Program-made: the position numbers and the translations under genes
Shown here: positions 7,396 through 38,920 of the stretch, piece by piece
Position numbering within the stretch: the first letter of the stretch is position 1
Layout: every line of letters begins with the position of its first letter
Notes under the pieces: model-generated
What the model saw: the letters and a program-made list of their open reading frames with translations, nothing else
Told to the model about the DNA's origin: nothing
Databases searched by the model: none
NCBI GenBank assembly: GCA_964481655.1
Contig: CAYZVO010000002.1
Span: 21,746 to 85,745, forward strand
Direction: 5' to 3'
DNA: 64,000 nt
Source: an uncultured Enterobacterales bacterium
Lineage (GTDB): Bacteria; Myxococcota_A; UBA796; JAFGLY01

Positions 7396-7464
7396 TCCGG
7401 GTCGAATGAAGCGGCCGGCCTCGCCGTCGGTGGGGGGCCCCGCAGGGAGGGGCAGGAGGTGTGC

Positions 7465-8166: not shown

Positions 8167-8225
8167 ACGGCCGGCGCATTGCGCGCGCGCTAAGGGGCCC
8201 GGGCATCACCCTACGGAGTGCCGCC

Positions 8226-9995: not shown

Positions 9996-11624
9996 CTACT
10001 CGTCCACGACCCGATAGCGGAGCAGCCCTTCCCAGGTGCCCACCACCAGCCAGTGGCCGTCGGGGCTGGCGGCGATGGACTCCGACAGGCGCGCCGGGCC
10101 GCCCAGGCCGCCCAGCTCCTGGCCGTCCAGATCGATCACCAGCGGGCCGCGGTGGGTGGTGACCAGGAGCCGGTCGGCGCCCACCGCCGCCACGGCCAGG
10201 CCGATGCCGGGACCCTTGGCGCGCTCTCGTCCCTTGTCGTCGAGGATCACGGTGCCGCCGTCGGCCAGCGCGATGTGCCCGCCGGGGAGCCAGGCCGCGT
10301 CGAGGGCCAGGTCCGGGTAGGGTCCCAGGCGCCGCTCGGCGCCAGAGCTGGCGTCCAGGGTCGCGATCCGTTCGTAGCCCCACAGCAGCAGCAGCTCGTC
10401 ACCGCTGGGCGCGGAGGCCAGCAGGGTGACCTGGTCGAGCATGTCGCCATCATGCCCGGCGCTGCGGCGCTTGACCCCGCGGGAGGCGTCGAAGACCCAC
10501 AGGCCCTGTCGGGCGCCGACCGCGAACCAGCGGCCGTCGGCGGTGAACGCGCAGTGGTGCACGGACCAGCGGGTGTCCTCACCGAGGATGGCCCGCGGTT
10601 CGCCGTCGAGGGCCCACAGCTGGTAGGCGCCGCCGTCGGTGTCCAGGCCGACGGAACCCCAGACCACCCCCAGCCGGGAGCCGTCGGGGGCGACGCAGAT
10701 CTCGTCGATCTCGCGTCCCTGGCGGTGTCCTCCAAGCTCGACACGGCCGCGCTCGAGGCCGTCGTCGAGCCCGAACCAGACGAGGACGTCATCTTCGGCG
10801 GCGAAGAGGGTGTCGCCGGCGATGGCCAGGGCCTCGTTGGGGGCCTCGATGGGATCGCCGTGGGCGGCTACCCGATCCCAGGTCGGCCAGGGCTCGGGTG
10901 GGGGAGGGGGCTCGTAGCTGGCGATGGTGCCGCCGCCTCCGCCGCTCCGCATCCCACCGCCGCCGGTCGCGAGCCCCGCGTCGGGGCTGTTCAGGGCGAT
11001 CACGTCTTCGAAGGGGTCTTCGTAGCCCATCAGCTCGTCGCTGAACCCGCCGTAGGCCGCGGTGGACCCTGCGATGGCCTGCAGCAGCCCTGACTCGGCG
11101 ATGATGGCGTCCGACCGTGCGGTGAGGGCGGAGCCCTGCTCGAGCTTCAGGGTCAGCGCGCCGGCCATCAGGCAGCGGTCGATCCCATGGAACACCAGGT
11201 GCTGGTCCGCCCGCTGTTCGACCTGCAGGCGCGTCGCGCCGCAGCGGGCGCTCAGGGGGCCCTCGACCCCGGTGACCGGGGCGGTGCTGGTGCACTCGAT
11301 GTTGGCCTCGAGGCTCCAGCAGTCCCGATCTGCGGTGGCGTCGAGGCGGCAGTCGACATCGGGCCTCGCGGTGCACGAGGACACGCTGAATCCTCCGCCG
11401 AGCCCACCCACGGGCCACTGCAGCTGGTGCAGCCCAGCCTTGTCGAGCTCGAGGGCCATCCAGCCCTCGCCGTCGCCGCCCGCCAGGGCCACCTCCCGGG
11501 CGTCGCCCAGGGCCAGCTCGATGGTCTGCTGGGCGTAGGCGCCGTCGTTGGTCTTCACAGCGTCGATCAGGGCGGGCTCGCGGGCCGGGGCCGCGGCGAC
11601 CAGCAGCGCGAGCGCCAGCATCAC
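9996..11624 (-). CDS. Secreted protein with C-terminal WD40/YVTN-like beta-propeller
   Basis: Signal peptide, Gly-rich linker, repeated blades (ICVAPDGSRL, CAFTADGRWF, LASAPSGDEL, IAASPDGHWL). GTGA overlap with the MMPL stop. Confidence 0.75.
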   Translation of the reverse strand: MMLALALLVAAAPAREPALIDAVKTNDGAYAQQTIELALGDAREVALAGGDGEGWMALELDKAGLHQLQWPVGGLGGGFSVSSCTARPDVDCRLDATADRDCWSLEANIECTSTAPVTGVEGPLSARCGATRLQVEQRADQHLVFHGIDRCLMAGALTLKLEQGSALTARSDAIIAESGLLQAIAGSTAAYGGFSDELMGYEDPFEDVIALNSPDAGLATGGGGMRSGGGGGTIASYEPPPPPEPWPTWDRVAAHGDPIEAPNEALAIAGDTLFAAEDDVLVWFGLDDGLERGRVELGGHRQGREIDEICVAPDGSRLGVVWGSVGLDTDGGAYQLWALDGEPRAILGEDTRWSVHHCAFTADGRWFAVGARQGLWVFDASRGVKRRSAGHDGDMLDQVTLLASAPSGDELLLLWGYERIATLDASSGAERRLGPYPDLALDAAWLPGGHIALADGGTVILDDKGRERAKGPGIGLAVAAVGADRLLVTTHRGPLVIDLDGQELGGLGGPARLSESIAASPDGHWLVVGTWEGLLRYRVVDE

Positions 11625-13882
11625 ACGGCCCGGATCTTGGGCTTGAACAGCACGATCATGGCCGGGAGCATCAGCAGGTCGCCCACCAGGGCGCAGACCA
11701 TGGCCAGGGACATGAGCATGCCGAACCAGGACACAGAGCGGATCTGGGCCAGGCCCAGCACCAGGAAGCCGATGGAGAGCACCACGGTGGTGGACATCAG
11801 CGCGCGCCCCACGCCGTGGATGGCGGCCTCGACGGCCTTGGTGTGATCCCCCAGGCGCCCCATCTCGTAGCGGAAGCGGTACAGGAACTGGGTGGTGTCA
11901 TCGACGATCAAGCCCAGCATGATGGCCGAGACGGTCACCGTGGCCACGTCGAGGCGGATGCCCACCAGGCCCATGACGCCGAGGATGATGATGACCGGCA
12001 CCAGGTTGGCCGGCACGGCCAGGGCCGACAGCCGCAGGGAGCGGAAGAGCAGGGCCAGCATCACGAAGATGACCAGGAAGGCCAGGGCGAAGCTCGACAC
12101 CTGCGACGCCACGACCTCTTCCATGATCACCACGTACAGCGGCAGGTAGCCGCCGGGGGTGATGGTGGCGCCGTCGGGCAGCTCGGCCACCTCGAGCAGG
12201 TCGTCGAGGATGAGGCCGAAGGCCTTGGCGGAGACCATGGGGATGCCCGCGGTGACCCGCAGGGAGTCCTCGTCGGCGGAGACCAGGCTCGACAGGTCGC
12301 TGTCCGGATCGCTCTCGTACAGCAGCAGGGCCTGCTCGAGGGCCGAGGGATCCTCGGGCACCACGAAGCTCTCGGGCTCACCGTCGGAGAGCACCTGGTT
12401 GAGCTTGCGCACCGTGTCCGCGGCGGAGCGGGTCCAGTCGACGTCGGGGTGCTCCTCCATCGCGTCCTGCCAGCGAGCCACGGCGCCCAGCACGGCGGGG
12501 TCGCGCAGGGCGCCGTCGGAGGTGACCACCAGCTCGAGTGGCGTGTAGTTGCCGAAGCTGGCCTCGATGGCCTCCGAGTCCTGGCGCACGTGGTGGTGGG
12601 ACTTCAGGTAGTCGATGCTGTAGGTGTCCACCTCGAGCTGGGTGATGCCCAGGGCGCCGGTGAGGATCAGCACCAGGGCGCCCACCAGTACGGCGGCGGG
12701 CTTCTGGGTGGCCAGCGTGGCCATGCCCGAGACCATCCACATCAGCGGCTTGGGGGGCTCCGGCGCCGGGTCCATGCGCTTCCACAGCAGGCCCACGGCG
12801 CAGCCGATCAGGGCGGCGAGGAAGGCCCCCAGCACGCCGATGGCGGCGAACACGCCCAGGTCTCGCACCACCGGCATGCTCGCGGTCGCCAGCGCGGCGA
12901 AGCCCGCCGCGGTGGTCAGGGAGTTCATGAAGCAGGGCCAGAACATGAAGGCGATCGCGGCCCGCGCCCGCTCCCAGCGGGTGCCGCCGGGGGGCTGCTC
13001 GACGGATCGGTTCAGGAAGTGGATGCAGTCGCTGACCCCGATGATGAGCATCAGGGTGGGCAGCACCATGGTGACCATGTTGATGTCGTGGCCGGTGGCC
13101 CCGTACAGGCCCATCAGCCAGACGGCGGCCAGGCCCACCACCAGCAGGGTGAGCACCACCGGTCCGACCCGGCGGAAGAGCACCAGCAGCAGGCCCACGA
13201 TCACCAGGTAGCTGGCGGCGATGAAGATCTGGGAGTCCACGGTGCTGGCCTGGTTGAGCGCCGCGTAGACCACGCCCATGCCGGCGTAGTCGGGGTCCTC
13301 GCCGCTGGCCTCGATCTGCGCGCGCAGGTCGGCCAGGATGGCGTCGCGCTTGGCGTCGATGTCCCCCATTGACTCCATCCAGGCCAGCACCAGGGCGGTG
13401 TCGCCGCTGGCGTTGACCAGGGTGCCTACGAGCAGGGGGTCGTCGAGCACGGACTGGGCGAAGTCGGGGCTGATGGGAGGGGCGTACAGGGGGGCGACCT
13501 CGAGCCAGTCCTCGCCCGATCGGATCTGCTCGATGGTGGCCAGGGACAGCACCCGCTCGATGCCCTCGACGCCCTCGGCGATCTCGCCGATGGCCTTCAT
13601 CCGGGCGAGCCCGTCTTCGTCGAGGATGCCGCCCGGCTGGTGCAGGGACATCACCACGACCTCGTCGTTGCCGAAGGTCTCCTGGAAGGCGTCGTAGGCC
13701 TCGAGGGCCGGGTCGCCCTCGACGAACCAGATGTCCAGGGCGTTGTCCACGCCGAGCTTGGACAGCCCGAGCATGGACACGGCGGACAGCAGGCAGACCA
13801 GGCCGACCATCAGCCAGCGCAGGCGCAGCAGGCGGTCGATGAAGCCTTCGGTGGCGTTGGCGGGGGGGGAGTGGTCGGTCAT
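11621..13882 (-). CDS. MMPL/RND family lipid exporter
   Basis: Two-fold repeat of TM plus periplasmic domain plus 5 TM. Conserved GVSDCIH and GLIVDDTTQ motifs. Confidence 0.9.
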   Translation of the reverse strand: MTDHSPPANATEGFIDRLLRLRWLMVGLVCLLSAVSMLGLSKLGVDNALDIWFVEGDPALEAYDAFQETFGNDEVVVMSLHQPGGILDEDGLARMKAIGEIAEGVEGIERVLSLATIEQIRSGEDWLEVAPLYAPPISPDFAQSVLDDPLLVGTLVNASGDTALVLAWMESMGDIDAKRDAILADLRAQIEASGEDPDYAGMGVVYAALNQASTVDSQIFIAASYLVIVGLLLVLFRRVGPVVLTLLVVGLAAVWLMGLYGATGHDINMVTMVLPTLMLIIGVSDCIHFLNRSVEQPPGGTRWERARAAIAFMFWPCFMNSLTTAAGFAALATASMPVVRDLGVFAAIGVLGAFLAALIGCAVGLLWKRMDPAPEPPKPLMWMVSGMATLATQKPAAVLVGALVLILTGALGITQLEVDTYSIDYLKSHHHVRQDSEAIEASFGNYTPLELVVTSDGALRDPAVLGAVARWQDAMEEHPDVDWTRSAADTVRKLNQVLSDGEPESFVVPEDPSALEQALLLYESDPDSDLSSLVSADEDSLRVTAGIPMVSAKAFGLILDDLLEVAELPDGATITPGGYLPLYVVIMEEVVASQVSSFALAFLVIFVMLALLFRSLRLSALAVPANLVPVIIILGVMGLVGIRLDVATVTVSAIMLGLIVDDTTQFLYRFRYEMGRLGDHTKAVEAAIHGVGRALMSTTVVLSIGFLVLGLAQIRSVSWFGMLMSLAMVCALVGDLLMLPAMIVLFKPKIRAV

Positions 13883-14964
13883 CGCCGGGTCTCCAGCACG
13901 AATGCGCCGTAGAAGGGAACGCGGTCCTGGGCGAGCAGGGTGGCGGAGCGCTCGGGGTGGCGCTCGACTCGATCCGCGAGGGAGGCGGGGCAGCTGCGGG
14001 GCACGAACAGGTTCCAGTAGGCGAACCGGGCGCCAGGCGCCGACGCCTCGATCATGGCGCGGTAGAGCTGCTGCCAGACGTCGGTCGGCAGGTACTCACC
14101 GATGTTGCTCAGGTTGAACGCGGTGTAGTGGCCCGCGGGGCAGTCGGGCAGGTGGTCCTCGAGGCTGGCCTGGACCCACTCGATGCGATCGGCGGCGTCG
14201 CGCAGCTTCGCGTGGCCGCGCTTGGTGATGTAGGGGTGGGCGTGCTCGATGGAGCGCCACGCGCCCTCGAGGATCCACTGCACGTAGGGGTTGTCGTGCA
14301 GGGACTGGCCGCCGAGCACGTCGTCGCAGCGGGCCAGGATGCGCTCTGCCACGCTGCCCTCGACCTGGGCGAACTGCTCGGGGCTGCGCCCCAGCCTGGC
14401 CATGACCCGGCGGCTGAAGAAGACCCGGAACAGACCGCGCCAGCGCCGGGTGGACCAGTGGCGGTCGTGCCAGGCCCGCTGCTCGGCGGGGCTCTTGGCG
14501 TCGATGAGGGCTTCGATGGTCGATCTGCGGTGAATGAGGGGCAGCACCCGGCGGGTGAAGGTGCCCAGGTAGCGCTCGAACTTACCGGCGCTCAGGAGGC
14601 CGTCGCTGATGAGCTGGGGGTTGGCGTTCCACCAGGCCCGGGCCATGCGCGAGAGGCGGTGCTCGATCTCCCCGTACGCGTCCAGGGGGTCCCCCGGGCG
14701 CAGGCCGAGCAGCACCTGGAAGCGGCCGTAGGGCAGCCAGCCACCCGCCAGCTTCAGCTCGCACAGGGCGATCTGCTGGGGGGACAGGTCGATGCCCACC
14801 ACGCGGGCACCGCGCAGCGCCAGGGCGAGGCTGTTGCAGCCGGCGGACGCCACGCTCAGCACGCGATCATCGGGGCCCACATCCAGCGCGTCGACCAGCA
14901 CCCGCCAGTCCTCCCAGCACTGGGCATAGGAGAGGCGGGAGGCCAGGGGAGCGGCGGCGGTCAT
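13879..14964 (-). CDS. DUF3419/BtaA-like SAM-dependent 3-amino-3-carboxypropyl transferase family protein
   Basis: YAQCWED, VLSVASAGCN, DLSPQQIALCELK, GKFERY and FNLSNIGEY motifs. ATG 14964 overlaps the upstream TGA. Confidence 0.85.
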   Translation of the reverse strand: MTAAAPLASRLSYAQCWEDWRVLVDALDVGPDDRVLSVASAGCNSLALALRGARVVGIDLSPQQIALCELKLAGGWLPYGRFQVLLGLRPGDPLDAYGEIEHRLSRMARAWWNANPQLISDGLLSAGKFERYLGTFTRRVLPLIHRRSTIEALIDAKSPAEQRAWHDRHWSTRRWRGLFRVFFSRRVMARLGRSPEQFAQVEGSVAERILARCDDVLGGQSLHDNPYVQWILEGAWRSIEHAHPYITKRGHAKLRDAADRIEWVQASLEDHLPDCPAGHYTAFNLSNIGEYLPTDVWQQLYRAMIEASAPGARFAYWNLFVPRSCPASLADRVERHPERSATLLAQDRVPFYGAFVLETRR

Positions 14965-17525
14965 GCGTCGTCGTCCGCGGTGATGGCCGGCTTGGCGCGG
15001 TCCTGCAGCGGCTTGACCGTGCCGGCGCCGCCGTCCATGCGGACCCGGTCTCCGTCCTTGATCAAGGCGGTGAGCCCGCGCAGCCCGACGACGGTGGGGA
15101 TGCCCATCTCCCGGGCGACCACGGCGGAGTGGGACAGGGGGCTGCCCCGCTCGACGAGCAGGCCCGAGATGGACGGGAACAGCGGCACCCAGCCGGGGTC
15201 GGTGCGCGGGGTGACCAGGATGTCGCCGTCGAGCCGGGCGCCGCCGGTGGGGGCCACCAGCGACACCACCGGACCCTCGACCACGCCGGGGTAGCAGGGT
15301 GTGCCCCGCATGACGCCGTCGTCGTCCAGCGCCGCGGGGGCGCGCCTGGCCGTGAAGCGGTTGTGGCGGTGGACGGGGCCCCAGGTGTGGAAGCGCTCGG
15401 GGGGACCGGGCAGGGCGCGGTAGGCGTCGAACTCGACCTTGCGCAGGGCCACCAGGCCCTTCCAGGAGGTGCAGGGCGCGTTGCCCTCGACCCAACCGAA
15501 CAGCTCCGGCAGCTCGAGGTAGAAGACGTCGCGGGGGTCGTCGAGGGCGCCGCTGGCGGCCATGTGCCCGCCGATGGCCCGGAAGATGTCGCGCACCAGG
15601 CCGAAGATGCGGGTGCGCAGGAAGCGGAGATCCTCGCGGGTGGCCACGGTCTCGCGGGCGCGGCCGAGGATCCAGAGGAACAAGGCCCGGCGCCAGCCCT
15701 GCAGCTGCTGCCGCGCCTGCTGTTCGGCCAGCTCGCGGCGGCGGCGCTCGCCGGCGCCGAACTGGGCGGGATCCATGGGCTCGCCGCGCAGGTAGTTGCG
15801 CAGGGAGGAGATCACGAACTCGGGCTGCTCCCGCAGGGGGATGGTCTCGAGCTTCAGCTCGTCGATGCAGCGATCGCCGAAGCGCTCCATCCAGGCGTCG
15901 AGCCAGCGGGCGAAGGTGGGATCGCGCCTGGCGCCCTCGAGGACCTCGAGATCGGACGCGCTGGAGTCGAACAGCTCCATGGCCCAGGGGGCGGCCCGCA
16001 GCCGGGCGGCGCGCTCGAGCAGGGCCCTGGTGGGAGCGGTGGACTCGAGCCCACCCTGGCCGGCCAGCAGGGCGTTGGCCATGGCGGCGCCTCGAGACTC
16101 GTCGCCGTCGCAGAGCAGGGTGGCGCACTGCTTGCGCAGGGCCGAGTGGAAGATCATGCAGAAGAAGTCGTTGACCAGCGGCGGGGTCCAGCGCATCAGC
16201 AGCTTGCGCTGCAGATCGCCGTAGATGGCGATGAGCTCGTCCGGCGGGAGGGTGTCCAGCTCGCGCTTGCGGTGGCTGCCCACGGCGTCTTCGAACTCCC
16301 GCTGGAAGCGGCGGGTGTCCCGGCGCAGGAACAGCAGCCGCCAGACCAGGGTGACCATCAGCCAGACCATGCGCGGCTTGTGCACCAGGTTGCGCTGCCA
16401 GATGGAGGCGGGGGCCTCGGCGTCCTCGTCGGCGGCGACCTCGGAGACCCCCATCATCTGCTGCATGGCGACCCGGTTGTACTGGTAGGCGGGCAGCAGG
16501 GTCAGGATCCGGAACCAGGCGTTGAGGTTGTAGTAGACCCGGCCCTGGATGAGCCCGATGAGCCGCTCGAAGATGTCGTTGTTGGCGTCGACGCTGGCCT
16601 GGGACACGCCCATCACCCGACAGAACAGTCGGTAGACGGTGTTGTAGGCGCCCCGGGCGAAGCTGTAGGTGAGGGGGGTGGTGACCCCGCTGTAGGACTC
16701 GACGATGTTCGAGTTGTCCCACAGCAGCTTGCGGCCGAAGGGCACCGGGGTGGTGATGGGGCGGGTCTGCACCAGCCACATCTGGTCGGCGTCGCGGGTG
16801 AACTCGACGTCCTGGGGGCCGCCGCCGATCTGCTCGAGCTGCCGACCCCAGGCCACCAGCTGGCAGACCTCGGTGTCGGAGAGCACGGGCTGATCCTGCT
16901 TGGCCTTGGGCACCGGGCGCTCGGCGGGTTCTTCGCCCACCAGCTTGACGTGGACCTGCTTGTCCTGGATCTCGGGCTCGATGGCGCCGCTGGGCCCCAC
17001 GCGGAAGGCGTCGCAGTCGGCGGAGCCCTGGACCACGCCTTCGCCCAGGCCCCAGGCGGCGGAGATCAGGGTGTGCTCGGGCATGTCGGGGTCGCGGGTG
17101 AACATCACGCCCGAGGCCTCGCCGCGGATCATGCGCTGCACCACCACGGCCACGGGCCCCGGCTCGATGCCGTGGGTGGCGCAGTAGGCCCGGACCCGCT
17201 CGGAGTCGCCGGACGCGCGGCAGGTGGTGATGGCGGCCTCGATGCGGGTGATGGCCTTGACCCCCAGCACGCTCTCGAGCTGACCGGCGAAGCTGTGCTG
17301 GGCGCCGTCCTCGGCCAGGGCCGAGGATCGCACGGCGTAGGGGCCGGGGCCGAGCTGCTCGAGGGCGGCCTTGAGCGCCTTGCGGTCGAGCTCGAGATCC
17401 GCGGGGATCACGAAGAAGGGCGGCACCGGCAGACCGTTGCGGACCAGCAAGCCCAGCCCTCCGGCCTTGCCCCCCACCCGATCGGCGCCTTCGCCCGCTG
17501 CCACCTGCTTGTCGAACAGAACCAT
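14961..17525 (-). CDS. PEP/pyruvate-binding-domain phosphotransferase with rifamycin phosphotransferase (RPH)/PigC-like architecture
   Basis: N-terminal ATP-grasp (VGGKA, YAVRSSA...EDG...SFAGQ, GLGEGVVQG, QTRPIT), long central helical domain, C-terminal phospho-His swivel (TDPGWVPLF, GSPLSHSAVVAREMGIP). Start re-called at ATG 17525 with GAGG RBS. Confidence 0.85.
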   Translation of the reverse strand: MVLFDKQVAAGEGADRVGGKAGGLGLLVRNGLPVPPFFVIPADLELDRKALKAALEQLGPGPYAVRSSALAEDGAQHSFAGQLESVLGVKAITRIEAAITTCRASGDSERVRAYCATHGIEPGPVAVVVQRMIRGEASGVMFTRDPDMPEHTLISAAWGLGEGVVQGSADCDAFRVGPSGAIEPEIQDKQVHVKLVGEEPAERPVPKAKQDQPVLSDTEVCQLVAWGRQLEQIGGGPQDVEFTRDADQMWLVQTRPITTPVPFGRKLLWDNSNIVESYSGVTTPLTYSFARGAYNTVYRLFCRVMGVSQASVDANNDIFERLIGLIQGRVYYNLNAWFRILTLLPAYQYNRVAMQQMMGVSEVAADEDAEAPASIWQRNLVHKPRMVWLMVTLVWRLLFLRRDTRRFQREFEDAVGSHRKRELDTLPPDELIAIYGDLQRKLLMRWTPPLVNDFFCMIFHSALRKQCATLLCDGDESRGAAMANALLAGQGGLESTAPTRALLERAARLRAAPWAMELFDSSASDLEVLEGARRDPTFARWLDAWMERFGDRCIDELKLETIPLREQPEFVISSLRNYLRGEPMDPAQFGAGERRRRELAEQQARQQLQGWRRALFLWILGRARETVATREDLRFLRTRIFGLVRDIFRAIGGHMAASGALDDPRDVFYLELPELFGWVEGNAPCTSWKGLVALRKVEFDAYRALPGPPERFHTWGPVHRHNRFTARRAPAALDDDGVMRGTPCYPGVVEGPVVSLVAPTGGARLDGDILVTPRTDPGWVPLFPSISGLLVERGSPLSHSAVVAREMGIPTVVGLRGLTALIKDGDRVRMDGGAGTVKPLQDRAKPAITADDDA

Positions 17526-17619
17526 TGCAACCTCGATCCGCCCTGCTCGCGTGGGCAGCGGCGAAGGGGTAGCCCTATCCCGAAACCACGGTGATCTCCT
17601 GTGTTCAACCTCGCTCCGG

Positions 17620-17934
17620 TTCACCACGGAGAACGCGGAGGACACGGAGGCTGCCGCTCGGCGGGTTGGGGTGGTTGGAGATTGGCGTCGAGAAGGGCGC
17701 GGTGGTCCCTGTGGCCGAGTCTGCGAGCTGCCGCTCCTTTGGTGCGATGAACGTGGTCGCGGGAGAGAATCCCGGTGCGCGTGTTGGTCGCGTCGCTTCT
17801 GGTCAGGGTGTCGCGCCGACGGAGCGGCAGCGCATCCCAGACCTGCGACCAGCGCCGCTCCCCCTCTGCGCCTGCCTCCACCCCCATCTCGAACCGAGCG
17901 GAGCCTCCGCGTTCTCCGCGATCTCCCTGTGGGT
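17620..17934. repeat. ~315-bp imperfect inverted repeat (MITE/REPIN-like) in a divergent intergenic region
   Basis: The outer arm GGAGAACGCGGAGGACACGGAGG matches the reverse complement of CCTCCGCGTTCTCCGCGATCTCC at 20/23. Inner matched blocks: CGCTCGG (17655)/CCGAGCG (17894) and GCTGCCGCTCC (17727)/GGAGCGGCAGC (17821). Confidence 0.7.
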
Positions 17935-21091: not shown

Positions 21092-21150
21092 GTATCGGGG
21101 GCCACGAGGCGGCGTTGGCGATCGCGGGTTCGAGGCCGATAGAAGCCCGT

Positions 21151-27959: not shown

Positions 27960-28253
27960 CGGGTGCACCGAGCGGCGAGCCAGCGCACCATGCCCCCTGG
28001 AACTTGCCATACGAGCGACTATGCCCTGGGAATGTTGCCATTCGGCGCCTCTCGCCGTTGGCCCGATGCCGAAAACCGGCGTTGTATGGTTGGGAGCACG
28101 ACGCGAACGTCCCGACGCAGGCCGCGTGGCAAGAAAGGGGAGGCTTGGTCGCGGTCATGGCAGGTTTGGGGCCCCTTGGTCGCTGGAGAGCAGGCCGTGG
28201 TCTGTCGGCTGTCGGCCCCAGCGCGATAGATCCCGGGTCATCACGGAGGCCCC

Positions 28254-29306
28254 ATGCTCTTGCTCTCTCTCGCGCTGCTCGCCTGCACCACCCCGGAGCC
28301 CGTCGAGGCGCCGAGCCCGGCACCTGCCGAGGCCGCCCCCGCCCTCGACCCGGTGCGCATCGGATGGCAGACCACCTGGGCCACCCAGGGGCAGCTGGCG
28401 CAGATCCTGGCACGGACCGATCTGCTGCAGGCCCAGGGCATGGACCCCACCCTGGTGGGCTTCACCTACGGCGGGCCCCTCAACGAGGGCGCCCTGGCCG
28501 GTGAGGTGGACGTGGTGCTCACCGCGGATCAGCCCGCCATCATGCTCTGCGCGAAGAGCCCGGACTGGGCCATCGTCGGCCGGCTGATGTACAACCGCGT
28601 CGGCACCTTCGTGCCCGCCGACTCCCCGGTCCAGGACGTGGCTGGCCTCGAGGGCAGCACCATCGCCATCCCCTACGGCGCCGCGGCCCAGCGCGAGACC
28701 CTGGCGGCCCTGCGGGAGGCGGGGCTCGAGCCCGCCGAGGACGTGACCACGGTGAACCTGGGCATCCAGGAGCAGGTGGCCCTGGTGGGCGCGGGCTCGA
28801 AGGACGGACGCTGGGGCACCATCGACGCCGGCTCGGCCTGGGACCCCACCTTCGCCGAGCTCGAGCACAGCGGCGCGGTGCGGGTGCTGGACCAGGGCGT
28901 GGTGACCTCGGTGGTCGTGATGCACAAGGACTACATCACCACCCACCCGGGCGCCGACGCCCGCTTCATGGCGGCGCTCGAGCAGGCCTACGGCGTGTAC
29001 CGGAACGACGTGGCCCAGGCCGACGCCTGGTTCGTCGAGGCCGCGGGGGTGGCCTTCGATCCGGCCGTGCTGGCCCTGGCGGCCTCGGTCGAGCCCAACC
29101 TCGAGGCCGACGCCGAGATCTCCACCCGCCTGTCCGGCTACGACATCGCCGGGATGGAGCGGGCCGCCGCCTTCATGCTGGAGGTCGAGCTGCTGAGACA
29201 GCCCGCTGATGTGGCGGCCATGATCGCCCAGCCGGGATCAGCCGAACAGCCGGTCCAGGAAGATGCCCAGGGTGATCAGGGGCAGGTAGATCACGGTCAG
29301 CCGTAG
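28254..29306 (+). CDS. ABC transporter substrate-binding lipoprotein (SsuA/TauA-like)
   Basis: Lipobox LLAC. FTYGGPLNEGALAGEVDV, LEGSTIAIPYG and DAGSAWDP. Confidence 0.85.
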   Translation: MLLLSLALLACTTPEPVEAPSPAPAEAAPALDPVRIGWQTTWATQGQLAQILARTDLLQAQGMDPTLVGFTYGGPLNEGALAGEVDVVLTADQPAIMLCAKSPDWAIVGRLMYNRVGTFVPADSPVQDVAGLEGSTIAIPYGAAAQRETLAALREAGLEPAEDVTTVNLGIQEQVALVGAGSKDGRWGTIDAGSAWDPTFAELEHSGAVRVLDQGVVTSVVVMHKDYITTHPGADARFMAALEQAYGVYRNDVAQADAWFVEAAGVAFDPAVLALAASVEPNLEADAEISTRLSGYDIAGMERAAAFMLEVELLRQPADVAAMIAQPGSAEQPVQEDAQGDQGQVDHGQP

Positions 29307-30128
29307 CATCCAGCGCGGCCAGCGGGGGGCCACGTCGCGCTCGAGGCCCATCAGGGCCACCACCATCATGGCGCCGGCCGCGGCGGCCGCGAAGCCCAGG
29401 TAGAGCTCGCCCACCAGGCCCAGGACACCCAGGAAGAGGCTGGCCGAGACCGTGGCCGAGGCGGTGACGAAGATCCAGAAGCGGGTGCGCTCGGGGCCCA
29501 GCGCCATGCTCGGGACCCTCAAGCCGGCCTTGGCGTACTCGTCCTGGCGCAGCAGGGCGATGGCCATCACATGGGGAAGCTGCCAGGCCAGCAGGAGCAC
29601 GAACAGGGCGATCCCGGGCAGCTCGATGCGCCCGGTGGCGGCCGTCCAGCCCATCAGGGGGGGCAGGGCGCCGGCGATGGCGCCGGGCACTGCGGCCAGG
29701 GCGGAGCGGGCCTTCATGGGGGTGTATACCGCCACGTAGAGCACCAGGGCCAGCAGACCCAGCAGGGCGGTGAGGGGGTTGGCCAGCCAGGTGAGCAGGG
29801 CCAGCCCGACGGCGGCCTGCAGCAGGGCCACGGTGGTGGCGCCGGTCGGAGAGATGGAGCCGGTGACCAGCGGCCGCGCGGCGGTGCGGGTCATCAGGGC
29901 GTCGCTGTGGCGCTCGAGCACCATGTTGAGGCCGTTGGCCGCGGCCACCACGAGGGTGGTGCCGGCGACGGTGCCCAGCCAGGTCTCGGTGCTGCTGGCG
30001 ACGGTGGCCAGGCCCAGGCCGCCGGCGGTCATCAGCACGTTCCAGGCGGTGACCCCGGGCTTGGCCAGGCCCAGGCTGATGCGCAGCCAGCGCAGGGGCG
30101 CGTGGATGGCGGGAGCGAGGGTGGTCAT
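29238..30128 (-). CDS. ctaB: Heme o synthase (protoheme IX farnesyltransferase)
   Basis: LAKPGV, NMVLERHSDALMTRTAARPL, YTPMK, PGAIAGALPPLMGW and WQLPH...Y. Confidence 0.92.
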   Translation of the reverse strand: MTTLAPAIHAPLRWLRISLGLAKPGVTAWNVLMTAGGLGLATVASSTETWLGTVAGTTLVVAAANGLNMVLERHSDALMTRTAARPLVTGSISPTGATTVALLQAAVGLALLTWLANPLTALLGLLALVLYVAVYTPMKARSALAAVPGAIAGALPPLMGWTAATGRIELPGIALFVLLLAWQLPHVMAIALLRQDEYAKAGLRVPSMALGPERTRFWIFVTASATVSASLFLGVLGLVGELYLGFAAAAAGAMMVVALMGLERDVAPRWPRWMLRLTVIYLPLITLGIFLDRLFG

Positions 30129-31048
30129 GCGGCCTTCCGGGGGGCGACGGCGTCGGCGCCCGCGAGGGGTCGGTAGCGCAGGCTCGCGGCGAGCCAGGCC
30201 GTGGACAGCCATGCACCTATCGCGGCGACCAGGTGGATGACCTGTGCCCAGGCGGGAGCCTGCAGGGCGGCGTCGAGCACGCCCAGGATCAGGCTGGCGC
30301 AGAGGAACGCCAGCAGGGACGCTCCCGGGGCCTTCATGCGCGGCCCACCACGGCGGATGGAGAACACCGCCCCGGCGCCCAGGAAGCTGGCCAGCAGCAG
30401 GGCGGTGAGGGGGTGCACGGCGCGCAGCTGCACGAGGTAGTGGCCCTCGGCGCCGACCGCGGCCAGGGCGGCCTCCGGCACGGTGTCACCCAGGGCCATG
30501 ATGGTGCCGGACACGCCGATGAGCAGCAGCGCCACCACGGACAGCAGCGCCGGAACCGCGGCCCCCAGGCGGGTCTGCCAGCCGTCCTCGCCGTGGCTCC
30601 AGTAGGCCGTGAGCAGGATGGCGCCGGACAGCAGGGAGGTGTTGAGGAAGTGGATGGCCATGGCGATCGCGCGGCTGACCGAGGCGTCGTCTTCCACCAG
30701 GCCGAAGATCACCAGCCCGGCCCCCAGCAGGGACTCGGTGATCAGCAGCACCAGGGACAACCAGGCGCCCCGCCGGACCAGGTGGCCCTTGGGGAAGGCG
30801 CGCACCGCCCAGACCAGCATGGCGATGACCAGCAGCACCAGCACGCCGCTGGTGAGCCGGTGGGACAGCTCCACCACGGTGTGGCCTGACGAGAGATCCG
30901 GCAGCACCGTTCCGTGGCACAGGGGCCAGTCCTCGCCACAGCCCGCGCCCGAGTAGGAGATCCGCACCCAGGCACCCCACAGGATGACGAGCACGGTGTA
31001 GCCGAGCACGCCCATGGCGTAGCGGGTGAAGGCGCTGCTGCGTTCCAT
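30125..31048 (-). CDS. ctaA: Heme A synthase (COX15/CtaA)
   Basis: WGAWVRISYSGAGCGEDWPLCHG, ELSHRL, AIHFL and VIHL (conserved His ligands). Strong AGGAGG RBS. Confidence 0.88.
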   Translation of the reverse strand: MERSSAFTRYAMGVLGYTVLVILWGAWVRISYSGAGCGEDWPLCHGTVLPDLSSGHTVVELSHRLTSGVLVLLVIAMLVWAVRAFPKGHLVRRGAWLSLVLLITESLLGAGLVIFGLVEDDASVSRAIAMAIHFLNTSLLSGAILLTAYWSHGEDGWQTRLGAAVPALLSVVALLLIGVSGTIMALGDTVPEAALAAVGAEGHYLVQLRAVHPLTALLLASFLGAGAVFSIRRGGPRMKAPGASLLAFLCASLILGVLDAALQAPAWAQVIHLVAAIGAWLSTAWLAASLRYRPLAGADAVAPRKAA

Positions 31049-31134
31049 GACTCCTCCTGTGGGAGCCTCATCACCTGCATTCGCTCGCGCGCAAGCGAGG
31101 GCCCGCGGGGAGGTGGTGGAACTTACCGCGGCGC

Positions 31135-32880
31135 TCAGTTGGCGCTGTACTCACCCTTCATGACCAGCCAGCCGCTGCTGGTGACGTGGGCCTGTGGGTC
31201 CTGGAACTGCAGGCTCACTCCCTGGAGCGCGGGCAGGTCGCTGAACTCGGAGAACTCCAGCGCCGGCACCGCCACGCCGGGCATGAAGTCCGAGCTGCGG
31301 CCCAGCAGGGGCGGGACGATCAGGCGGACCAGGGCGGCGAGATCGCCGGGGTCGAGGGCCTCGTCGTACTCGATGGTGCCCACCTCGACCTGCACGTAGG
31401 CGGGGCGGGAGTCCAGGGCCATGACGATCTGCTGCTCGCCGTCCACCGGCTCGATGCTCACCGTGGTGCCTGTGCTGGCGTTGACGGAGAAGTCGTGGTT
31501 GACGCCGTCTTCCCGCAGGAACGCCAGGCGCAGCTCGCCGATGCCGAGGTTGAAGTCCTGGTCGTCCTGGACGGGGGGCTGCATCACGGGGGGCAGGCGG
31601 AAGTCGATGGTCACGGTCTCCACGGGGCCCAGGGGCGGGTCCATCTGCTCGCCCATCAGCACCGCCAGCTCCAGGTTGCCGATCTGCAGGCGGGTGAGCT
31701 GGCCCGAGGTCCAGAAGGCGAAGAGCAGCTGGTTGACCAGGTCGTCGTCGATGAGCAGGGCGAAGCTGCCGCCGCTGCCCTCGGACCAGGCGGGCGGGTC
31801 TTCCGTGGTGTCGATGGACCCGGCGCCGCTGGGCAGATCGATGCCCACATCGGACCAGGCCGCGACGTCCATCTCCATGCGGATGCCGCCGGAGGTGCAC
31901 TCGAGGCCCGAGACGTCGGCGGAGAAGTGGATCGGGTTGGTGTCGCCGTAGGAGAAGTCCATGGCCAGGCCGCTCAGGTATTCCGGCAGGAGCTCCTCGA
32001 GCATGGCCCCGACCTCTTCTTCGAGGGACTCGGCCACGTAGTCGGCGGCCCAGTCGGCCAGCCATTCCTCGGCCCAGCTGGGCACCCAGTCGACCTCCAT
32101 GCCGAAGCCCTCGAGCGAGGCGTTCACGTAGGAGGCGTTGGCCTGGACCTGGCCGTTGCGGATGGACAGCTCGATGGTGGCGTCCAGGTCGAGGCTGGAC
32201 ATCCACGCCGAGCCATCGACCTCGAACCAGCCGTAGATGTCGGCGGTGAAGTCCATCCACACGTCGTACAGGGTGAAGCTGCCCTCGACGGCGCCGTTGG
32301 TGGGGGACATGGAGACGTCGGCCCCGGACCAGGAGAAGCTGGTGGGGGTGATGTCGGCGTAGTCGGTCTCCAGGGTGGTGCCGACGAAGTCCTGGGCGAT
32401 GGAGCTGTCGGCCAGCACCAGCTCGACGATGTTGGACAGCTCGCTCAGGTCGGGGCCCAGCAGCAGCCGCAGGGCGCCGGGAAGGGAGGTGCCGACCTCG
32501 TGGGTGGGGCCCCACATGAACGCGCGGCCATCCACGGCGCGCTCGCCGTCGATGTCCTCGAGGCGGGAGCCGAGGATGTTGAGGCCCGGCTCGGGGCTCC
32601 AGCCCTGGTTGACCATGCCCGAGGGGCCCCAGCTCACGTCGGTGTCCGAGATCACCAGGGTGTCCAGCTCGGCGCTTCCGGTGGTCACCTGGCCCTGGAG
32701 CACGACGTCTCGCTCCCCCATGAAGGACGCCCGGGCGGGGCTGTCGATGCTCAGGGTCGGCAGGACCGTGGGGGCGTCCTCGATGATGGTGTCATCGGGC
32801 TTGGTGTCCTGGTCTTTCTTGCAGCCGCACAGCGCCAGCAGGAGCGCGACGGGGAGCAGGCGGGGCAGGCCGCGGTGCAT
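31135..32880 (-). CDS. Acidic lipoprotein with Ig-like domain and putative BPI/LBP/CETP (TULIP)-like lipid-binding region
   Basis: Lipobox LCGC, then LSIDSP-type Ig-like domain. Long beta-strand/helix pattern with ALLIDDDLVNQLLFAFW resembling BPI/LBP folds. Confidence 0.6.
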   Translation of the reverse strand: MHRGLPRLLPVALLLALCGCKKDQDTKPDDTIIEDAPTVLPTLSIDSPARASFMGERDVVLQGQVTTGSAELDTLVISDTDVSWGPSGMVNQGWSPEPGLNILGSRLEDIDGERAVDGRAFMWGPTHEVGTSLPGALRLLLGPDLSELSNIVELVLADSSIAQDFVGTTLETDYADITPTSFSWSGADVSMSPTNGAVEGSFTLYDVWMDFTADIYGWFEVDGSAWMSSLDLDATIELSIRNGQVQANASYVNASLEGFGMEVDWVPSWAEEWLADWAADYVAESLEEEVGAMLEELLPEYLSGLAMDFSYGDTNPIHFSADVSGLECTSGGIRMEMDVAAWSDVGIDLPSGAGSIDTTEDPPAWSEGSGGSFALLIDDDLVNQLLFAFWTSGQLTRLQIGNLELAVLMGEQMDPPLGPVETVTIDFRLPPVMQPPVQDDQDFNLGIGELRLAFLREDGVNHDFSVNASTGTTVSIEPVDGEQQIVMALDSRPAYVQVEVGTIEYDEALDPGDLAALVRLIVPPLLGRSSDFMPGVAVPALEFSEFSDLPALQGVSLQFQDPQAHVTSSGWLVMKGEYSAN

Positions 32881-32945
32881 GGGCCCTCCGGTGGGGCGGC
32901 GAGGCGTTAGGCTTCGTGAAACCCCAGGATAGCGGATCGCCCCGG

Positions 32946-34205
32946 ATGTTGCAGTCCATCGTCGAAGCCCTGCTCACGGACCTCCGGGGGGTGCTGGTGG
33001 TGGGCGTCGCGATCTTTGCGCTGCTGGTCTGCAACGAGCTGCTGTCGCGGGTGGTCAAGCTGCCCAGCGAGCTGACCCGCAAGATCAGCCACATCGGCTC
33101 CGGCTTCATCGTCATCTCGTTCCCCTGGCTGCTGAGTTCGGCCTGGTCCGTGGCGGTGCTCACCCTGTCGTTCCTGATCATCCTGGGGGGTGGCAAGAAG
33201 ACCGGCCTGCTGATGTCCATCCACGGGGTCAGCCGTCGCACCGGCGGTGCGTACTTCTACCCGGTGGCGGTGCTGGGCATCTGGCTGCTGTCCGGGGGCG
33301 ACAAGGCCCTGTTCGCCATCCCCATCGCCATCATGGCCATCGCCGACACCGGCGCTGCGCTGGTGGGCAAAGCGCGGGGCGAGACCGTGTTTCAGGTGCT
33401 CGATGGACAGCGCAGCTTCGAGGGCACCGGCACCTTCTTCGGGTTGGCGTTCGCCATCGTGCTGGGGGGCCTGGCCCTGGCCGGTCGGCCCGGGTGGCCG
33501 GATCTGCTGCTGGTGAGCCTGGTGGCGGCCCTGCTGACCTCGGCGGTCGAGGCGGTCTCCGTGCGGGGGAGCGACAACATCCTGATCCCCTACGCGGCCT
33601 GGCTGGTGCTGGAGCGCACCCTGCGGCTGGGGCTGGACGAGCTCTCCACCTGGCTGGGGGGCATGCTCGTGGCGGTGCTGGTGGTGTTGGCGGCCTACAA
33701 GCCGGCGCGCCTGTCACCGGCCGCGGCCTTGCTGAGCTTCATCCTGGCCACCCTGGCCTACGCCCTGGGGGGCTGGGCCTGGCTGGTGCCCCTGTTGGTG
33801 CTCTACGGCCTGTACATGCTGGGGCGCCCGGCGGGGCTCGAGACCGACCTGACCGACATCTTCGCGGCGTCGGTGGGCTCCATGTTGGTGGTGCTGCTCT
33901 TCGCCCACACCGACGACCCCGGGCTGTTCCTGCCCTTCCTGGTCACCGTCTCCGCCAACGCGGCGGTGGCCTGCTGGATGGCCCTGCGCTCCCGGCCCTG
34001 GCTGCGGGTGTTCACCCCGGTCGCGGCGGCGGCCCTGCCTCCGGCGATCCCCCTGCTGATGGGGCACGAGGTGCCCGTGCTGGCCCTGGCGGCAGGCGGG
34101 CTGGGCGGGCTGTTGCTGTTCCTGCTGCTGGCCCGGACCCGGCTGGTGGGGCGTCGGCTGGTGGCCTCGGTGGTGGTGGCCCTGATCGCGTGGCTGCTGG
34201 CCTGA
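32946..34205 (+). CDS. CTP-dependent polyprenol (phytol/dolichol) kinase-like membrane protein with extended C-terminal TM region
   Basis: ELTRKISHIGSG, ADTGAALVG, RSFEGT and GSDNILIP motifs, ~13 TM helices. Confidence 0.8.
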   Translation: MLQSIVEALLTDLRGVLVVGVAIFALLVCNELLSRVVKLPSELTRKISHIGSGFIVISFPWLLSSAWSVAVLTLSFLIILGGGKKTGLLMSIHGVSRRTGGAYFYPVAVLGIWLLSGGDKALFAIPIAIMAIADTGAALVGKARGETVFQVLDGQRSFEGTGTFFGLAFAIVLGGLALAGRPGWPDLLLVSLVAALLTSAVEAVSVRGSDNILIPYAAWLVLERTLRLGLDELSTWLGGMLVAVLVVLAAYKPARLSPAAALLSFILATLAYALGGWAWLVPLLVLYGLYMLGRPAGLETDLTDIFAASVGSMLVVLLFAHTDDPGLFLPFLVTVSANAAVACWMALRSRPWLRVFTPVAAAALPPAIPLLMGHEVPVLALAAGGLGGLLLFLLLARTRLVGRRLVASVVVALIAWLLA

Positions 34206-34217
34206 TAGGTGGTGGGC

Positions 34218-35096
34218 ATGGATCCCGCACGCCTCCCTCTGTACCGAAGCCTCGCGCCTCTGGAGATCCTCGAGATCGACGGCGCCTCCATCCTCGCCGC
34301 CGCGCACCCTGGCCTGGCGCCCGCGGGAACGCTGTCGCAGCCCTGGGGTGAGCCCAGGGGATTCTCCGCCGCCATCGAGGCGGGTGAGGCCTGGCTGCGG
34401 GACCGCGGCCTGACCCGGGCGCTGGGGCCGATGGAGCTCTGCACCTGGTTCACCTACCGGGTGCGGCTGGGGCCGGATCGCTTCCCCGGCTTCCCCCTCG
34501 AGGTCGACGCCGATCCGGCGCCGTGGCGCGCCGCTGGCTATCGCATCGTCGCCGACTACAACTCCATCCTGGTGCCCCACGACAGCCTGCTCGCGCGCTT
34601 CGGCGGCACCCAGGAGCGCCTCGAGGCCGCCGGCTACAGCTTCCGCCCCCTGGACCTCGAGCGCTTCGACCAGGATCTCGAGCTGGGCTGGCGGCTGTCC
34701 TGCGCGGCCTTCGCCGAGGCCTACGCCTACGTGGAGCTGCCCTGGCCGGCCTTCCGGGCGCTGTACCACGGCTACCGGGCCTACCTGGATCCCCGCCTCA
34801 GCTGCCTGGCCTTCGATCCCGACGGCGAGCCTGTGGGCTACTACTTCAACTTCCCCGGGCCGGTCTTCGAGGGCCAGCCCACCGCCATCTACAAGACCGT
34901 GGCCGTGCACCCCCGGGCCCGCGGGCAGCGGGTGGCCGCGGCGCTGCTCGAGCGCGCCCACCGGCAGAGTGTGGCCCTGGGCATGACCGGCGGCATGGTG
35001 CACGCCCTGATGTGGTACGACGCTGGCTCCCAGTTCCTGGGTGCCCACGGTGAGCGGGTGATCCGGGAGTACGCCCTGATGGGCAAGGAGCTGTGA
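34218..35096 (+). CDS. GNAT-family N-acyltransferase-like protein
   Basis: Acyl-CoA binding motif AVHPRARGQRVAAALL. N-terminal GPMELCTWFTYR segment. Confidence 0.7.
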   Translation: MDPARLPLYRSLAPLEILEIDGASILAAAHPGLAPAGTLSQPWGEPRGFSAAIEAGEAWLRDRGLTRALGPMELCTWFTYRVRLGPDRFPGFPLEVDADPAPWRAAGYRIVADYNSILVPHDSLLARFGGTQERLEAAGYSFRPLDLERFDQDLELGWRLSCAAFAEAYAYVELPWPAFRALYHGYRAYLDPRLSCLAFDPDGEPVGYYFNFPGPVFEGQPTAIYKTVAVHPRARGQRVAAALLERAHRQSVALGMTGGMVHALMWYDAGSQFLGAHGERVIREYALMGKEL

Positions 35097-36613
35097 TGCT
35101 GGACCAGCATGGGACCGACGCCAACGTCGTCCGTCACCTGGTGCGCCTGGCCGCGGACCAGGGTGATCAGCTCGCCGTGGTGGAGCCCGGCGGCGACCGG
35201 GTGACCTTCGCGGGGCTCGACGCCCTCACGGCGCGCTTCGCCGGCGGGCTGAGGGAGCGTGGGGTGCCGGCTGGGGCGCGGCTGCTGGTGCTCGCCCCCA
35301 TGGGCATCGCCCTGTACGTGGCGCTGCTGGGCGTCTTCAGGGCGGGCTGCACCGCGGTGCTCGTCGATCCGTCCGCCCCCCGCGCCTTGCTGCGGGCGAC
35401 CCTGGCCAAGCTCGATCTGCACGGCTTCGTGGGCAGCCCCAAGGCCCACCTGCTGCGGCTGATGATTCCCGAGCTGCGGGGGCTGCGGCTCTACATCTCC
35501 ACCGGCGGCTTCCTGCCGCTGCCTCACACCCGGATCACCTCGGTGGTCGGCGAGTCCTACGGCCCCCACCCGGTGGACTGCCCGGCGCTGGTCACCTTCA
35601 CCACCGGCACCTCCGGCCGCGCCCGGGCCATGGCCCGGCGCCACAGCTTCCTGGACGCCCAGCGGGTGGCCCTGACCGAGCACATGGGGCTGGGCTCCGA
35701 CGACATCGACCTGGCCACCCTGCCGGTGTTCCTGCTCAACTCGCTGTCGGCGGGTTCCACCTGCGTGCTGGCGGACGCTGACCTGTCGAAGGTCGGCTCG
35801 GCCGACCCCGAGCGCATCGCCGCCCAGCTGCGCGAGTGGAAGGTGACCACCACCTCTGGCTCCCCCAGCTTCTTCGCACCGCTGGCCCGCACCATGGAGG
35901 CCCGCGGCGAGCAGCTCCCTCACCTGCGCAAGCTCTTCGTGGGGGGCGGACGCGTGCCCTCCAGGCTGCTGGCCCAGCTGAAGGCCATCGCCCCTGACGC
36001 GAACGTATACGTGCACTACGGCTCCACCGAGGCCGATCCCATCGCCAGCATCGAGGCCGCCGAGGTGCTGGCCATGGGCGGCGACGGCGCGGGCCGCGGC
36101 TCCTGCGTGGGGCCGGCGTCCCCCGGCCTCGAGCTGCAGCTGTGGCAGCCCGGGACCACCGAACAGGCCCCCGAGGGTGAGCCTGGCGAGGTCGTGGTCT
36201 CCGGCGACCACGTCAACCGCTCCTACCTGGACAACCCCGAGGCCGACGCGAAGTACAAGGTCCACAAGGGCGAGGCGGTCTGGCATCGCACCGGTGATGT
36301 GGCCCGCCTCGACGAGCAGGGCCGGGTCTGGCTCATCGGCCGGGTGGGGGAGGCCATCGCCGGGCGCTGGCCCCTGACCGTCGAGGCCCTGGCCGAGAGC
36401 CTGCCCTGGGTCCGCCGGGTCGGGTATGGCGCGCGCGGGGATGAACCCGTGCTGGTGGTGGAGCGCTTCGAGGGGCAGGGCCCCGAGGACTGGGAGGCTC
36501 AGCTGCGGGAGCGTTGCGGGGTCGAGACGATCCTCGAGGGCACGGTCCCCGTGGACCACCGGCACAACGCCAAGGTCGATCGGGTGGCGCTGGCGCGGGA
36601 GCTCGCTGGCTAG
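35093..36613 (+). CDS. AMP-binding (ANL superfamily) ligase, OleC-like
   Basis: FTTGTSG, YGSTEA, WHRTGD and terminal PVDHRHNAKVDR resembling the OleC C-terminal motif. Confidence 0.85.
   Translation: MMLDQHGTDANVVRHLVRLAADQGDQLAVVEPGGDRVTFAGLDALTARFAGGLRERGVPAGARLLVLAPMGIALYVALLGVFRAGCTAVLVDPSAPRALLRATLAKLDLHGFVGSPKAHLLRLMIPELRGLRLYISTGGFLPLPHTRITSVVGESYGPHPVDCPALVTFTTGTSGRARAMARRHSFLDAQRVALTEHMGLGSDDIDLATLPVFLLNSLSAGSTCVLADADLSKVGSADPERIAAQLREWKVTTTSGSPSFFAPLARTMEARGEQLPHLRKLFVGGGRVPSRLLAQLKAIAPDANVYVHYGSTEADPIASIEAAEVLAMGGDGAGRGSCVGPASPGLELQLWQPGTTEQAPEGEPGEVVVSGDHVNRSYLDNPEADAKYKVHKGEAVWHRTGDVARLDEQGRVWLIGRVGEAIAGRWPLTVEALAESLPWVRRVGYGARGDEPVLVVERFEGQGPEDWEAQLRERCGVETILEGTVPVDHRHNAKVDRVALARELAG

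Positions 36614-38920
<2,307 letters not shown>

Follow-up and report, generated by a model that had tools for sequence, protein, structure and literature searches.

The genes at positions 32946-36613 of the stretch of DNA analysed here (64,000 nucleotides of contig CAYZVO010000002.1, assembly GCA_964481655.1, recorded as an uncultured Enterobacterales bacterium and placed by GTDB in Myxococcota_A; hereafter the window) raise the question of whether they form a single pathway with a second group of genes in the same window. The interval encodes a kinase-like membrane protein, a GNAT-fold protein and an ANL ligase, and the original prediction, made without database searches, joined these to an RPH-like/DUF3419/MMPL locus about 15 kb away as two halves of a lipid pathway. 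We regard it as probable, at roughly 0.7, that these three genes make up the distal module of a lipid-type cassette which is widespread among bacteria and is split in this Myxococcota-like lineage. The full cassette is ordered HMG-CoA-reductase-like, UbiA, RPH-like, DUF3419/BtaA-like, VTE5-like kinase with a DUF92-like domain, tandem GNAT and ligase, and it probably builds an amino-acid-bearing membrane lipid.

The link between the two loci is seen in bacteria that carry the cassette in one piece. A scan with an alignment of the kinase, with one genome taken per species, gave 73 loci, which were compared with the window proteins by tblastn; 70 of them have a kinase match. DUF3419 lies directly upstream of the kinase homologue and on the same strand in 37 of these 70 loci, and UbiA, RPH, DUF3419, kinase, GNAT and ligase are all present in 24; an HMG-CoA-reductase-like gene is present in 26 and is found with most of the six-gene loci. 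The window-type split arrangement, in which a lipoprotein gene is divergent from the kinase, accounts for nine. Where a DUF3419-adjacent locus has at least 3.5 kb of downstream sequence the ligase is usually present (26/29 loci). The neighbourhood comparison suggested with the original prediction thus places kinase, GNAT and ligase side by side with DUF3419 and RPH in some 30 loci spread over many phyla. Carriers of the cassette belong to the Alphaproteobacteria, Verrucomicrobiota, Planctomycetota, Acidobacteriota, Gemmatimonadota, Chloroflexota, Rhodothermota, Lentisphaerota and Myxococcota. Locus L007, for example, has the RPH-like gene, a 210-aa gene, DUF3419, kinase, GNAT and ligase consecutively, and L008 has DUF3419, a short kinase, UbiA, RPH, GNAT and MMPL. 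The seven genes of Paracoccus amoyensis (L034) are mutually overlapping, with the Pfam types HMG-CoA_red, UbiA, PPDK_N plus PEP-utilizers, DUF3419, no hit, no hit and AMP-binding respectively. Cassette members are also fused to one another, as DUF3419 with tandem GNAT (P0123), tandem GNAT with AMP-binding (P0209), and kinase with tandem GNAT (P0100 and P0213).

MMPL genes lie within the cassette or adjoin it in L008, L018, L048 and the genomes G167 and G198. Two of these lie in metagenome-assembled genomes (MAGs) of other groups, at 6638-8900 of L048 (alphaproteobacterial) and 9967-12327 of L008 (Vicinamibacteria), so that recruitment of an RND-type exporter is not confined to the lineage of the window. 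Genome G198, from the same phylum as the window, has a single cluster of ligase, DUF3419, reductase-like gene, MMPL, UbiA, RPH and GNAT, and no VTE5-like kinase was detected in this genome. At 6574-8757 of its locus L085 (G198:C3) one protein joins an HMG-CoA-reductase-like domain to an EcKL (ecdysteroid-kinase-like) small-molecule kinase domain, and the kinase step may here have been taken over by this non-orthologous enzyme. The fusion, together with the apparent lack of a VTE5-like kinase in G198, fits a reductase-then-kinase alcohol-phosphorylation step in the full cassette.

The genome that contains the window (9.04 Mb) holds nearly the whole set, although not in the fixed seven-gene order. 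The Paracoccus RPH, DUF3419, kinase, GNAT and ligase proteins all find window genes as their best or only matches, the RPH protein with 431 bits against 167 for the next match, and the window ligase and the Paracoccus cassette ligase are each other's best hits. Six of the seven cassette genes are represented by reciprocal best or only hits; the HMG-CoA-reductase-like gene is missing, and the cassette-type reductase used as a query has no match in the genome. The sole HMG-CoA reductase is encoded on contig C65 beside mevalonate diphosphate decarboxylase and a type-2 isopentenyl-diphosphate isomerase. The cassette is dispersed here over at least three loci, namely window positions 11.6-17.6 kb and 32.9-36.6 kb and contig C154, and MMPL, LolA-like and lipoprotein genes stand beside the loci in the window. 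In this lineage the reductase has been lost and export genes have been acquired. On contig C154, outside the window (19709-22008), a radical-SAM gene overlaps the start of the only cassette-type UbiA gene of the genome. Relatives of its product are encoded near the split-type loci L018 (171 bits) and L011, and this gene may be a lineage-specific addition to the pathway.

Co-occurrence within the phylum gives the same picture. Among 201 genomes, kinase orthologues (E<=1e-80) are present in seven, and all seven have DUF3419 (E<=1e-81); an RPH orthologue of at least 48% identity is present in six, and in the seventh a fragment is seen where the contig ends. Kinase, DUF3419 and RPH are all missing from about 20 further genomes of the same order. 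The association has a Fisher p of 1.5e-11 overall and 2.7e-6 within the order, both values being uncorrected for phylogeny. G167, which belongs to another family of this order, carries UbiA-RPH-DUF3419-MMPL and lipoprotein/kinase...GNAT-ligase on one contig, ~16-20 kb apart, a loose linkage much like that of the window. We conclude that the proposed link between the two loci is well supported, because contiguity, reciprocal best hits, co-occurrence and fusions agree; the refuting outcome named with the original prediction, an absence of synteny and co-occurrence, did not arise. Several records, L009-L012, L018 and L047, are high-GC Myxococcota-like or other MAG contigs titled 'Klebsiella pneumoniae' or 'uncultured Enterobacterales', and these taxonomic labels look wrong.

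The first of the three genes was originally described as a polyprenol kinase, an assignment that stands on its motifs, on the names of its homologues and on a transitive family link, and that lacks a direct family match. Residues 1-225 form a VTE5/dolichol-kinase-like domain of the cytidine triphosphate (CTP)-transferase superfamily, and residues 226-419 what is probably a degenerate DUF92 (VTE6-like) domain. The N-terminal domain keeps four motifs, RKxxH, D[TA]AAAxxG, KSxEGS and ExxSxxGxDNxxxP, which are common to the cassette orthologues, to ~500-aa kinase+DUF92 fusion proteins of Bacteroidota and Mycobacterium, and to L074; the matching domain of L074 hits PF01148 (CTP_transf_1) at 6.8e-9, which provides the transitive link. 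Homologues carry the JGI names phytol kinase or dolichol kinase. Direct significant matches of the window protein to models of the PF01148/COG0170 CTP_transf_1 family are absent, as is a direct Pfam match to PF01940, and the kinase alignment, used as a profile against PDB sequences, found nothing. In hhalign comparisons the N-terminal domain aligns with the kinase half of the kinase+DUF92 fusion proteins at 100% (E 7.5e-40), and the C-terminal domain of the window clade aligns with DUF92 at 98% probability (E 2.8e-13, 119 columns), with crossed controls giving at most 1.3% probability. The DUF92 alignment spans only the first ~139 of 268 template columns, and the second half of DUF92, including the ADTWatEIG segment, has no counterpart in the C-terminal domain of this clade. 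An AlphaFold2 model of the protein is all-helical (pLDDT 87). DUF92 we take to be the family of the plant phytyl-phosphate kinase VTE6. VTE6 corresponds to COG1836, and VTE5 is a CTP-preferring enzyme related to dolichol kinase (PMC9782597). The ~500-aa fusion proteins, which carry a C-terminal DUF92 (PF01940) at E 1e-49 and 1e-68, form a clade with a full DUF92 domain (L028, L029, L033, L037, L049, L061 and L069-L073, from Bacteroidota, Mycobacterium and others) and have none of the cassette genes nearby; they are probably bifunctional prenol/prenyl-phosphate kinases.

The second protein had been recognised as having an acyltransferase fold, and this can be refined to a tandem GNAT. PF00583 (Acetyltransf_1) matches the C-terminal half only (residues 189-258; 27.7 bits, cut-off 20.7), and a sequence search of PDB with this protein gave only noise. 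An AlphaFold model built from a 29-sequence alignment has a pLDDT of 94.7, and its top Foldseek matches in PDB are tandem GNATs, including MAB_4324 (7q3a; E 1.4e-11, TM 0.60), 3tt2, 2wpx and MshD; lower matches include MprF/L-PGS, FemX and the aminoacyl-tRNA-dependent peptide synthases Sba18 and Sbb17 (E 1e-9 to 1e-7). The protein thus has two GNAT folds with an acyl-CoA loop in one of them, the arrangement that defines tandem GNATs. The model and sequence favour acyl-CoA over aminoacyl-tRNA as the donor, because the C-terminal half retains the CoA pyrophosphate loop V-x-P-x-x-R-x-x-G-x-G. A profile search of 1.84 billion representative proteins places 2,137 clusters at 50% identity in this tandem-GNAT family at E<=1e-30.

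The third protein is an ANL ligase, as had been proposed, with a PF00501 (AMP-binding) match of 146 bits (cut-off 29.9) and the core motifs YGSTEADP, WHRTGD and NAKVD, the last with the A10 Lys; the first reads YGSTEA[ED]P across an alignment of the window ligase with 34 relatives from related loci. Its closest NCBIfam model is PRK09274 (NF006754, a fatty-acid-CoA-ligase family), at 336.7 bits below the cut-off of 478, and a PDB sequence search finds generic ANL enzymes only and no OleC structure. The P-loop indeed lacks its usual Lys: it reads TTGTSGRARA, where other cassette ligase orthologues have FTSGSTGxPK[AG], and the Lys-to-Arg substitution is restricted within the 35 sequences to the window, its close relatives L001 and L003, and L031. 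This is a conservative, lineage-specific change. The C-terminal tail, VDHRHNAKVDR, conforms to a signature P[VL]DxRHx[AS]K[VI][DE] that is kept in every cassette ligase aligning across the region, and an OleC-type ligase on contig C57 of the same genome has the tail FPVDIRHNAKVDRLAL. The description of the tail as OleC-type therefore holds, and on sequence comparison the enzyme itself is not an OleC.

Three alternative explanations have to be weighed, two of which turn on the ligase and the GNAT. If the ligase were an OleC-type beta-lactone synthetase the operon would serve olefin or beta-lactone biosynthesis, and in favour of this the C-terminal signature is common to OleC-type ligases and the OleC models NF045786 and NF045785 align with the protein end to end. 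Their scores of 204 and 141 bits are, however, far short of the cut-offs (900 and 850, respectively), PRK09274 likewise falls well below its own threshold, and no FabH/OleA-like gene (ACP_syn_III_C) is present on contig C2, which contains the window. Elsewhere in the same genome, contig C57 carries an oleABCD-like cluster, whose ligase scores 735.6 bits with PRK09274 and 661 and 630 with the OleC models, and to which the window ligase is a paralogue with only 30% identity. OleC was thus rejected as an identity for the window ligase, this explanation is effectively refuted, and the earlier statement that olefin synthesis is unsupported at this locus is confirmed. The C57 cluster (27893-33551, outside the window) consists of a FabH-like gene, an alpha/beta hydrolase, a ligase and an SDR gene, with the FabH-like thiolase matching PRK09258 at 454 bits, and the organism probably makes long-chain olefins or beta-lactones. 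On an unlikely, although less remote, explanation the GNAT draws on aminoacyl-tRNA in the manner of MprF, FemX and Sbb17 and places an amino acid on the head group of a lipid, and the ligase adenylates an amino acid or another small acid in place of a fatty acid. The lower Foldseek matches of the GNAT include enzymes of this kind, and the ligase scores 134 bits, a sub-threshold value, with the amino-acid adenylation model TIGR01733. Against it, the top folds are tandem GNATs that use acyl-CoA (MAB_4324 and MshD), the GNAT retains both its CoA pyrophosphate loop and its PF00583 match, the top models of the ligase are of fatty-acid-CoA-ligase types, and the GNAT+ligase fusions suggest that the ligase itself supplies the donor.

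Other observations weigh against the three genes being part of the cassette, or against the functions that we assign to them. The kinase-like protein has no Pfam or NCBIfam match even at E<=10, and Foldseek comparison of its model with PDB gave nothing significant (CdsA, 4q2e, appears at a probability of 0.2-0.25), so that a CTP-transferase relationship is not established by fold; its DUF92-like domain, being without the ADTWatEIG segment, may be inactive. In the kinase tree the window clade lies beside the cassette clades and is not nested in them, and it shows a weak association (94/87) with the clade of kinase+DUF92 fusions; the claim of orthology is based instead on reciprocal best hits, on neighbouring genes and on co-occurrence. 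Four of six related genomes have the two loci on different contigs, GNAT relatives occur without kinase or DUF3419 in G050 and G187, and on JGI contig Ga0615127_000102 (L001/L084) the GNAT-ligase pair is ~12 kb from the kinase. With its reductase-like gene missing, the pathway in this genome may differ from the seven-gene form. The evidence as a whole consists of families, motifs, folds, gene order, co-occurrence and fusions, and each chemical step is read from family membership. Several of these points, namely the weak grouping of the kinase with stand-alone fusion proteins of Bacteroidota and Mycobacterium, the GNAT homologues without a kinase, the separation of GNAT-ligase from kinase in L001, and the lack of linkage between the two loci in most relatives, would also suit an independent prenol-salvage operon accompanied by an unrelated N-acylation, in which the VTE5/VTE6-like protein recycles phytol-type alcohols to the diphosphate and the proximity of RPH and DUF3419 is coincidental. 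We consider this quite improbable given the ~30 contiguous loci, the fusion of tandem GNAT to kinase in some proteins and to DUF3419 in another, and the fact that every genome of the phylum sample with the kinase also has DUF3419 and RPH. As a separate observation, the kinase gene of L001/L084 adjoins an ECF sigma factor gene.

Taking the split cassette as the preferred reading, a route can be proposed from the protein families. The membrane kinase would phosphorylate a long-chain prenol or alkanol with CTP, priming the UbiA and RPH steps, and the DUF3419 enzyme would add a 3-amino-3-carboxypropyl group derived from S-adenosylmethionine (SAM). The ligase would activate a carboxylic acid, probably a fatty acid, to acyl-AMP and probably acyl-CoA, and the tandem GNAT, at the membrane, would use that acyl group to acylate the newly introduced amine. 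Outward transport of the product would then fall to the MMPL pump, the LolA-like protein and the lipoprotein. A step order of DUF3419, then GNAT, with the ligase feeding the GNAT, is consistent with the DUF3419+GNAT and GNAT+ligase fusions. From these families we infer, with the original prediction, a hybrid isoprenoid/acyl aminolipid as the product. A more specific proposal, which we put forward tentatively and hold to be less likely than not, is that the product would represent a lipid class new to bacterial membranes: a SAM-derived aminolipid of homoserine type, anchored by a prenyl or alkyl chain, with its amine N-acylated by the ligase and tandem GNAT, and sent to the outer membrane in this organism by the MMPL pump, a LolA-like carrier and a BPI-like lipoprotein.

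The coordinates of the genes, sites and motifs discussed are collected in Table 1.

Table 1. Window positions of the kinase-GNAT-ligase module, its flanking elements and the partner locus
Feature	Position	Strand	Description
MMPL/RND-type transporter	11621..13882	-	PF03176 and sterol-sensing domain
DUF3419 (BtaA-like)	13879..14964	-	PF11899, 204 bits; single copy in genome
RPH-like phosphoenolpyruvate-utilising phosphotransferase	14961..17645	-	First gene of partner locus; PPDK_N and PEP-utilizers
Divergent lipoprotein	31135..32880	-	581 aa, without Pfam match; head-to-head with kinase gene, conserved in lineage
Spacer between divergent lipoprotein and kinase genes	32881..32945	.	65 bp; from gene ends
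Kinase-like gene	32946..34205	+	Two-domain integral membrane protein, 419 aa; ATG 32946, TGA 34203-34205
Tandem-GNAT gene	34218..35096	+	292 aa from ATG 34218; TGA 35094-35096
Shine-Dalgarno sequence AAGGAG for ligase	35085..35090	+	Within 3' end of GNAT gene, 5 nt before ATG 35096; read from sequence
ANL ligase gene	35096..36613	+	~505 aa; ATG 35096, alternative GTG 35093
Ligase P-loop TTGTSGRARA	35600..35629	+	Residues 170-179 counted from GTG 35093; aligned with orthologues
Ligase C-terminal signature VDHRHNAKVDR	36551..36583	+	Residues 487-497; contains A10 Lys

The three genes are tightly spaced, as had been noted: co-directional open reading frames fill the interval, with a G+C content at third codon positions (GC3) of 0.92 in a window of ~71% G+C. 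The kinase start at ATG 32946 is chosen because 419 aa is the length of nearly all homologues. For the GNAT the ATG at 34218 is the most likely start, with GTG 34209 as the alternative, because its homologues begin MDPARL. The GNAT stop codon overlaps the ligase ATG as TGATG, and the two genes are translationally coupled. The short spacer upstream of the kinase gene is presumed to be a promoter region shared with the divergent lipoprotein gene, a role inferred from its position; it contains no sigma-70 consensus, and a promoter and terminator scan of positions 32600-36900 returned no promoter-like site and a single terminator-like site, which lies within the lipoprotein gene and is not above the level of shuffled sequence. 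Homologues of this lipoprotein are divergent from the kinase in L003, L005, L009-L015, L017, L018 and G167. At the downstream end (36613/36614) the ligase stop codon abuts that of a convergent gene for a 768-aa FG-GAP/VCBS lipoprotein with no spacer, and no terminator-like hairpin is present at this junction.

No description of the cassette or its product was found among the roughly 8.4 million papers and preprints searched, and the Lipocone paper deals with other systems. The cassette-specific tandem-GNAT family has more than 2,000 clusters at 50% identity, and cultured carriers such as Paracoccus amoyensis, Neomegalonema perideroedes DSM 15528 and strains of Erythrobacter and Roseovarius mean that the product can be sought. 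The window in turn shows the cassette breaking into modules (kinase, GNAT-ligase and RPH-DUF3419), and it shows that the reductase-like gene is dispensable and which export genes can be recruited. The fusion proteins make the proposed order of steps testable.

Parts of the cassette resemble several characterised systems. The ligase shares with OleC and PRK09274 an ANL subfamily neighbourhood, the C-terminal PVDxRHNAK[VI]D signature and end-to-end model alignment, but it falls below every curated cut-off and has no OleA, OleB or OleD neighbours. The kinase-like protein has the motifs of the VTE5/dolichol-kinase (Sec59) family in its N-terminal domain, and its C-terminal domain is homologous to the first half of DUF92; it differs in that its DUF92-like half is truncated and without the conserved motif, and in that the gene context here is a biosynthetic cassette and not chlorophyll-phytol salvage. 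FcrA, a fatty acyl-CoA reductase related to HMG-CoA reductase, is a precedent for an HMG-CoA-reductase-type enzyme making fatty alcohols (PMC11948995). The full cassette elsewhere has a gene of the HMG-CoA-reductase family that could make the alcohol for the kinase, whereas this genome is without a cassette-type reductase and has only the mevalonate-pathway enzyme. MAB_4324, MshD and the clavulanate-pathway tandem GNAT (2wpx) likewise have two fused GNAT folds with the CoA loop only in the C-terminal half, although they are only 12-18% identical to the window GNAT, and the family of the latter is cassette-specific and often fused to a kinase, DUF3419 or ligase partner. BtaA attaches the 3-amino-3-carboxypropyl group of SAM to the hydroxyl of a lipid, and the DUF3419/BtaA-family protein of the partner locus would do likewise. 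The BtaA/BtaB pathway to diacylglyceryltrimethylhomoserine (DGTS) shares with the cassette this protein family and the logic of a phosphorus-free, amino-acid-type head group. The kinase, tandem GNAT, ANL ligase, RPH-like and UbiA partners are foreign to the DGTS pathway, and in the cassette the amine is probably acylated rather than trimethylated.

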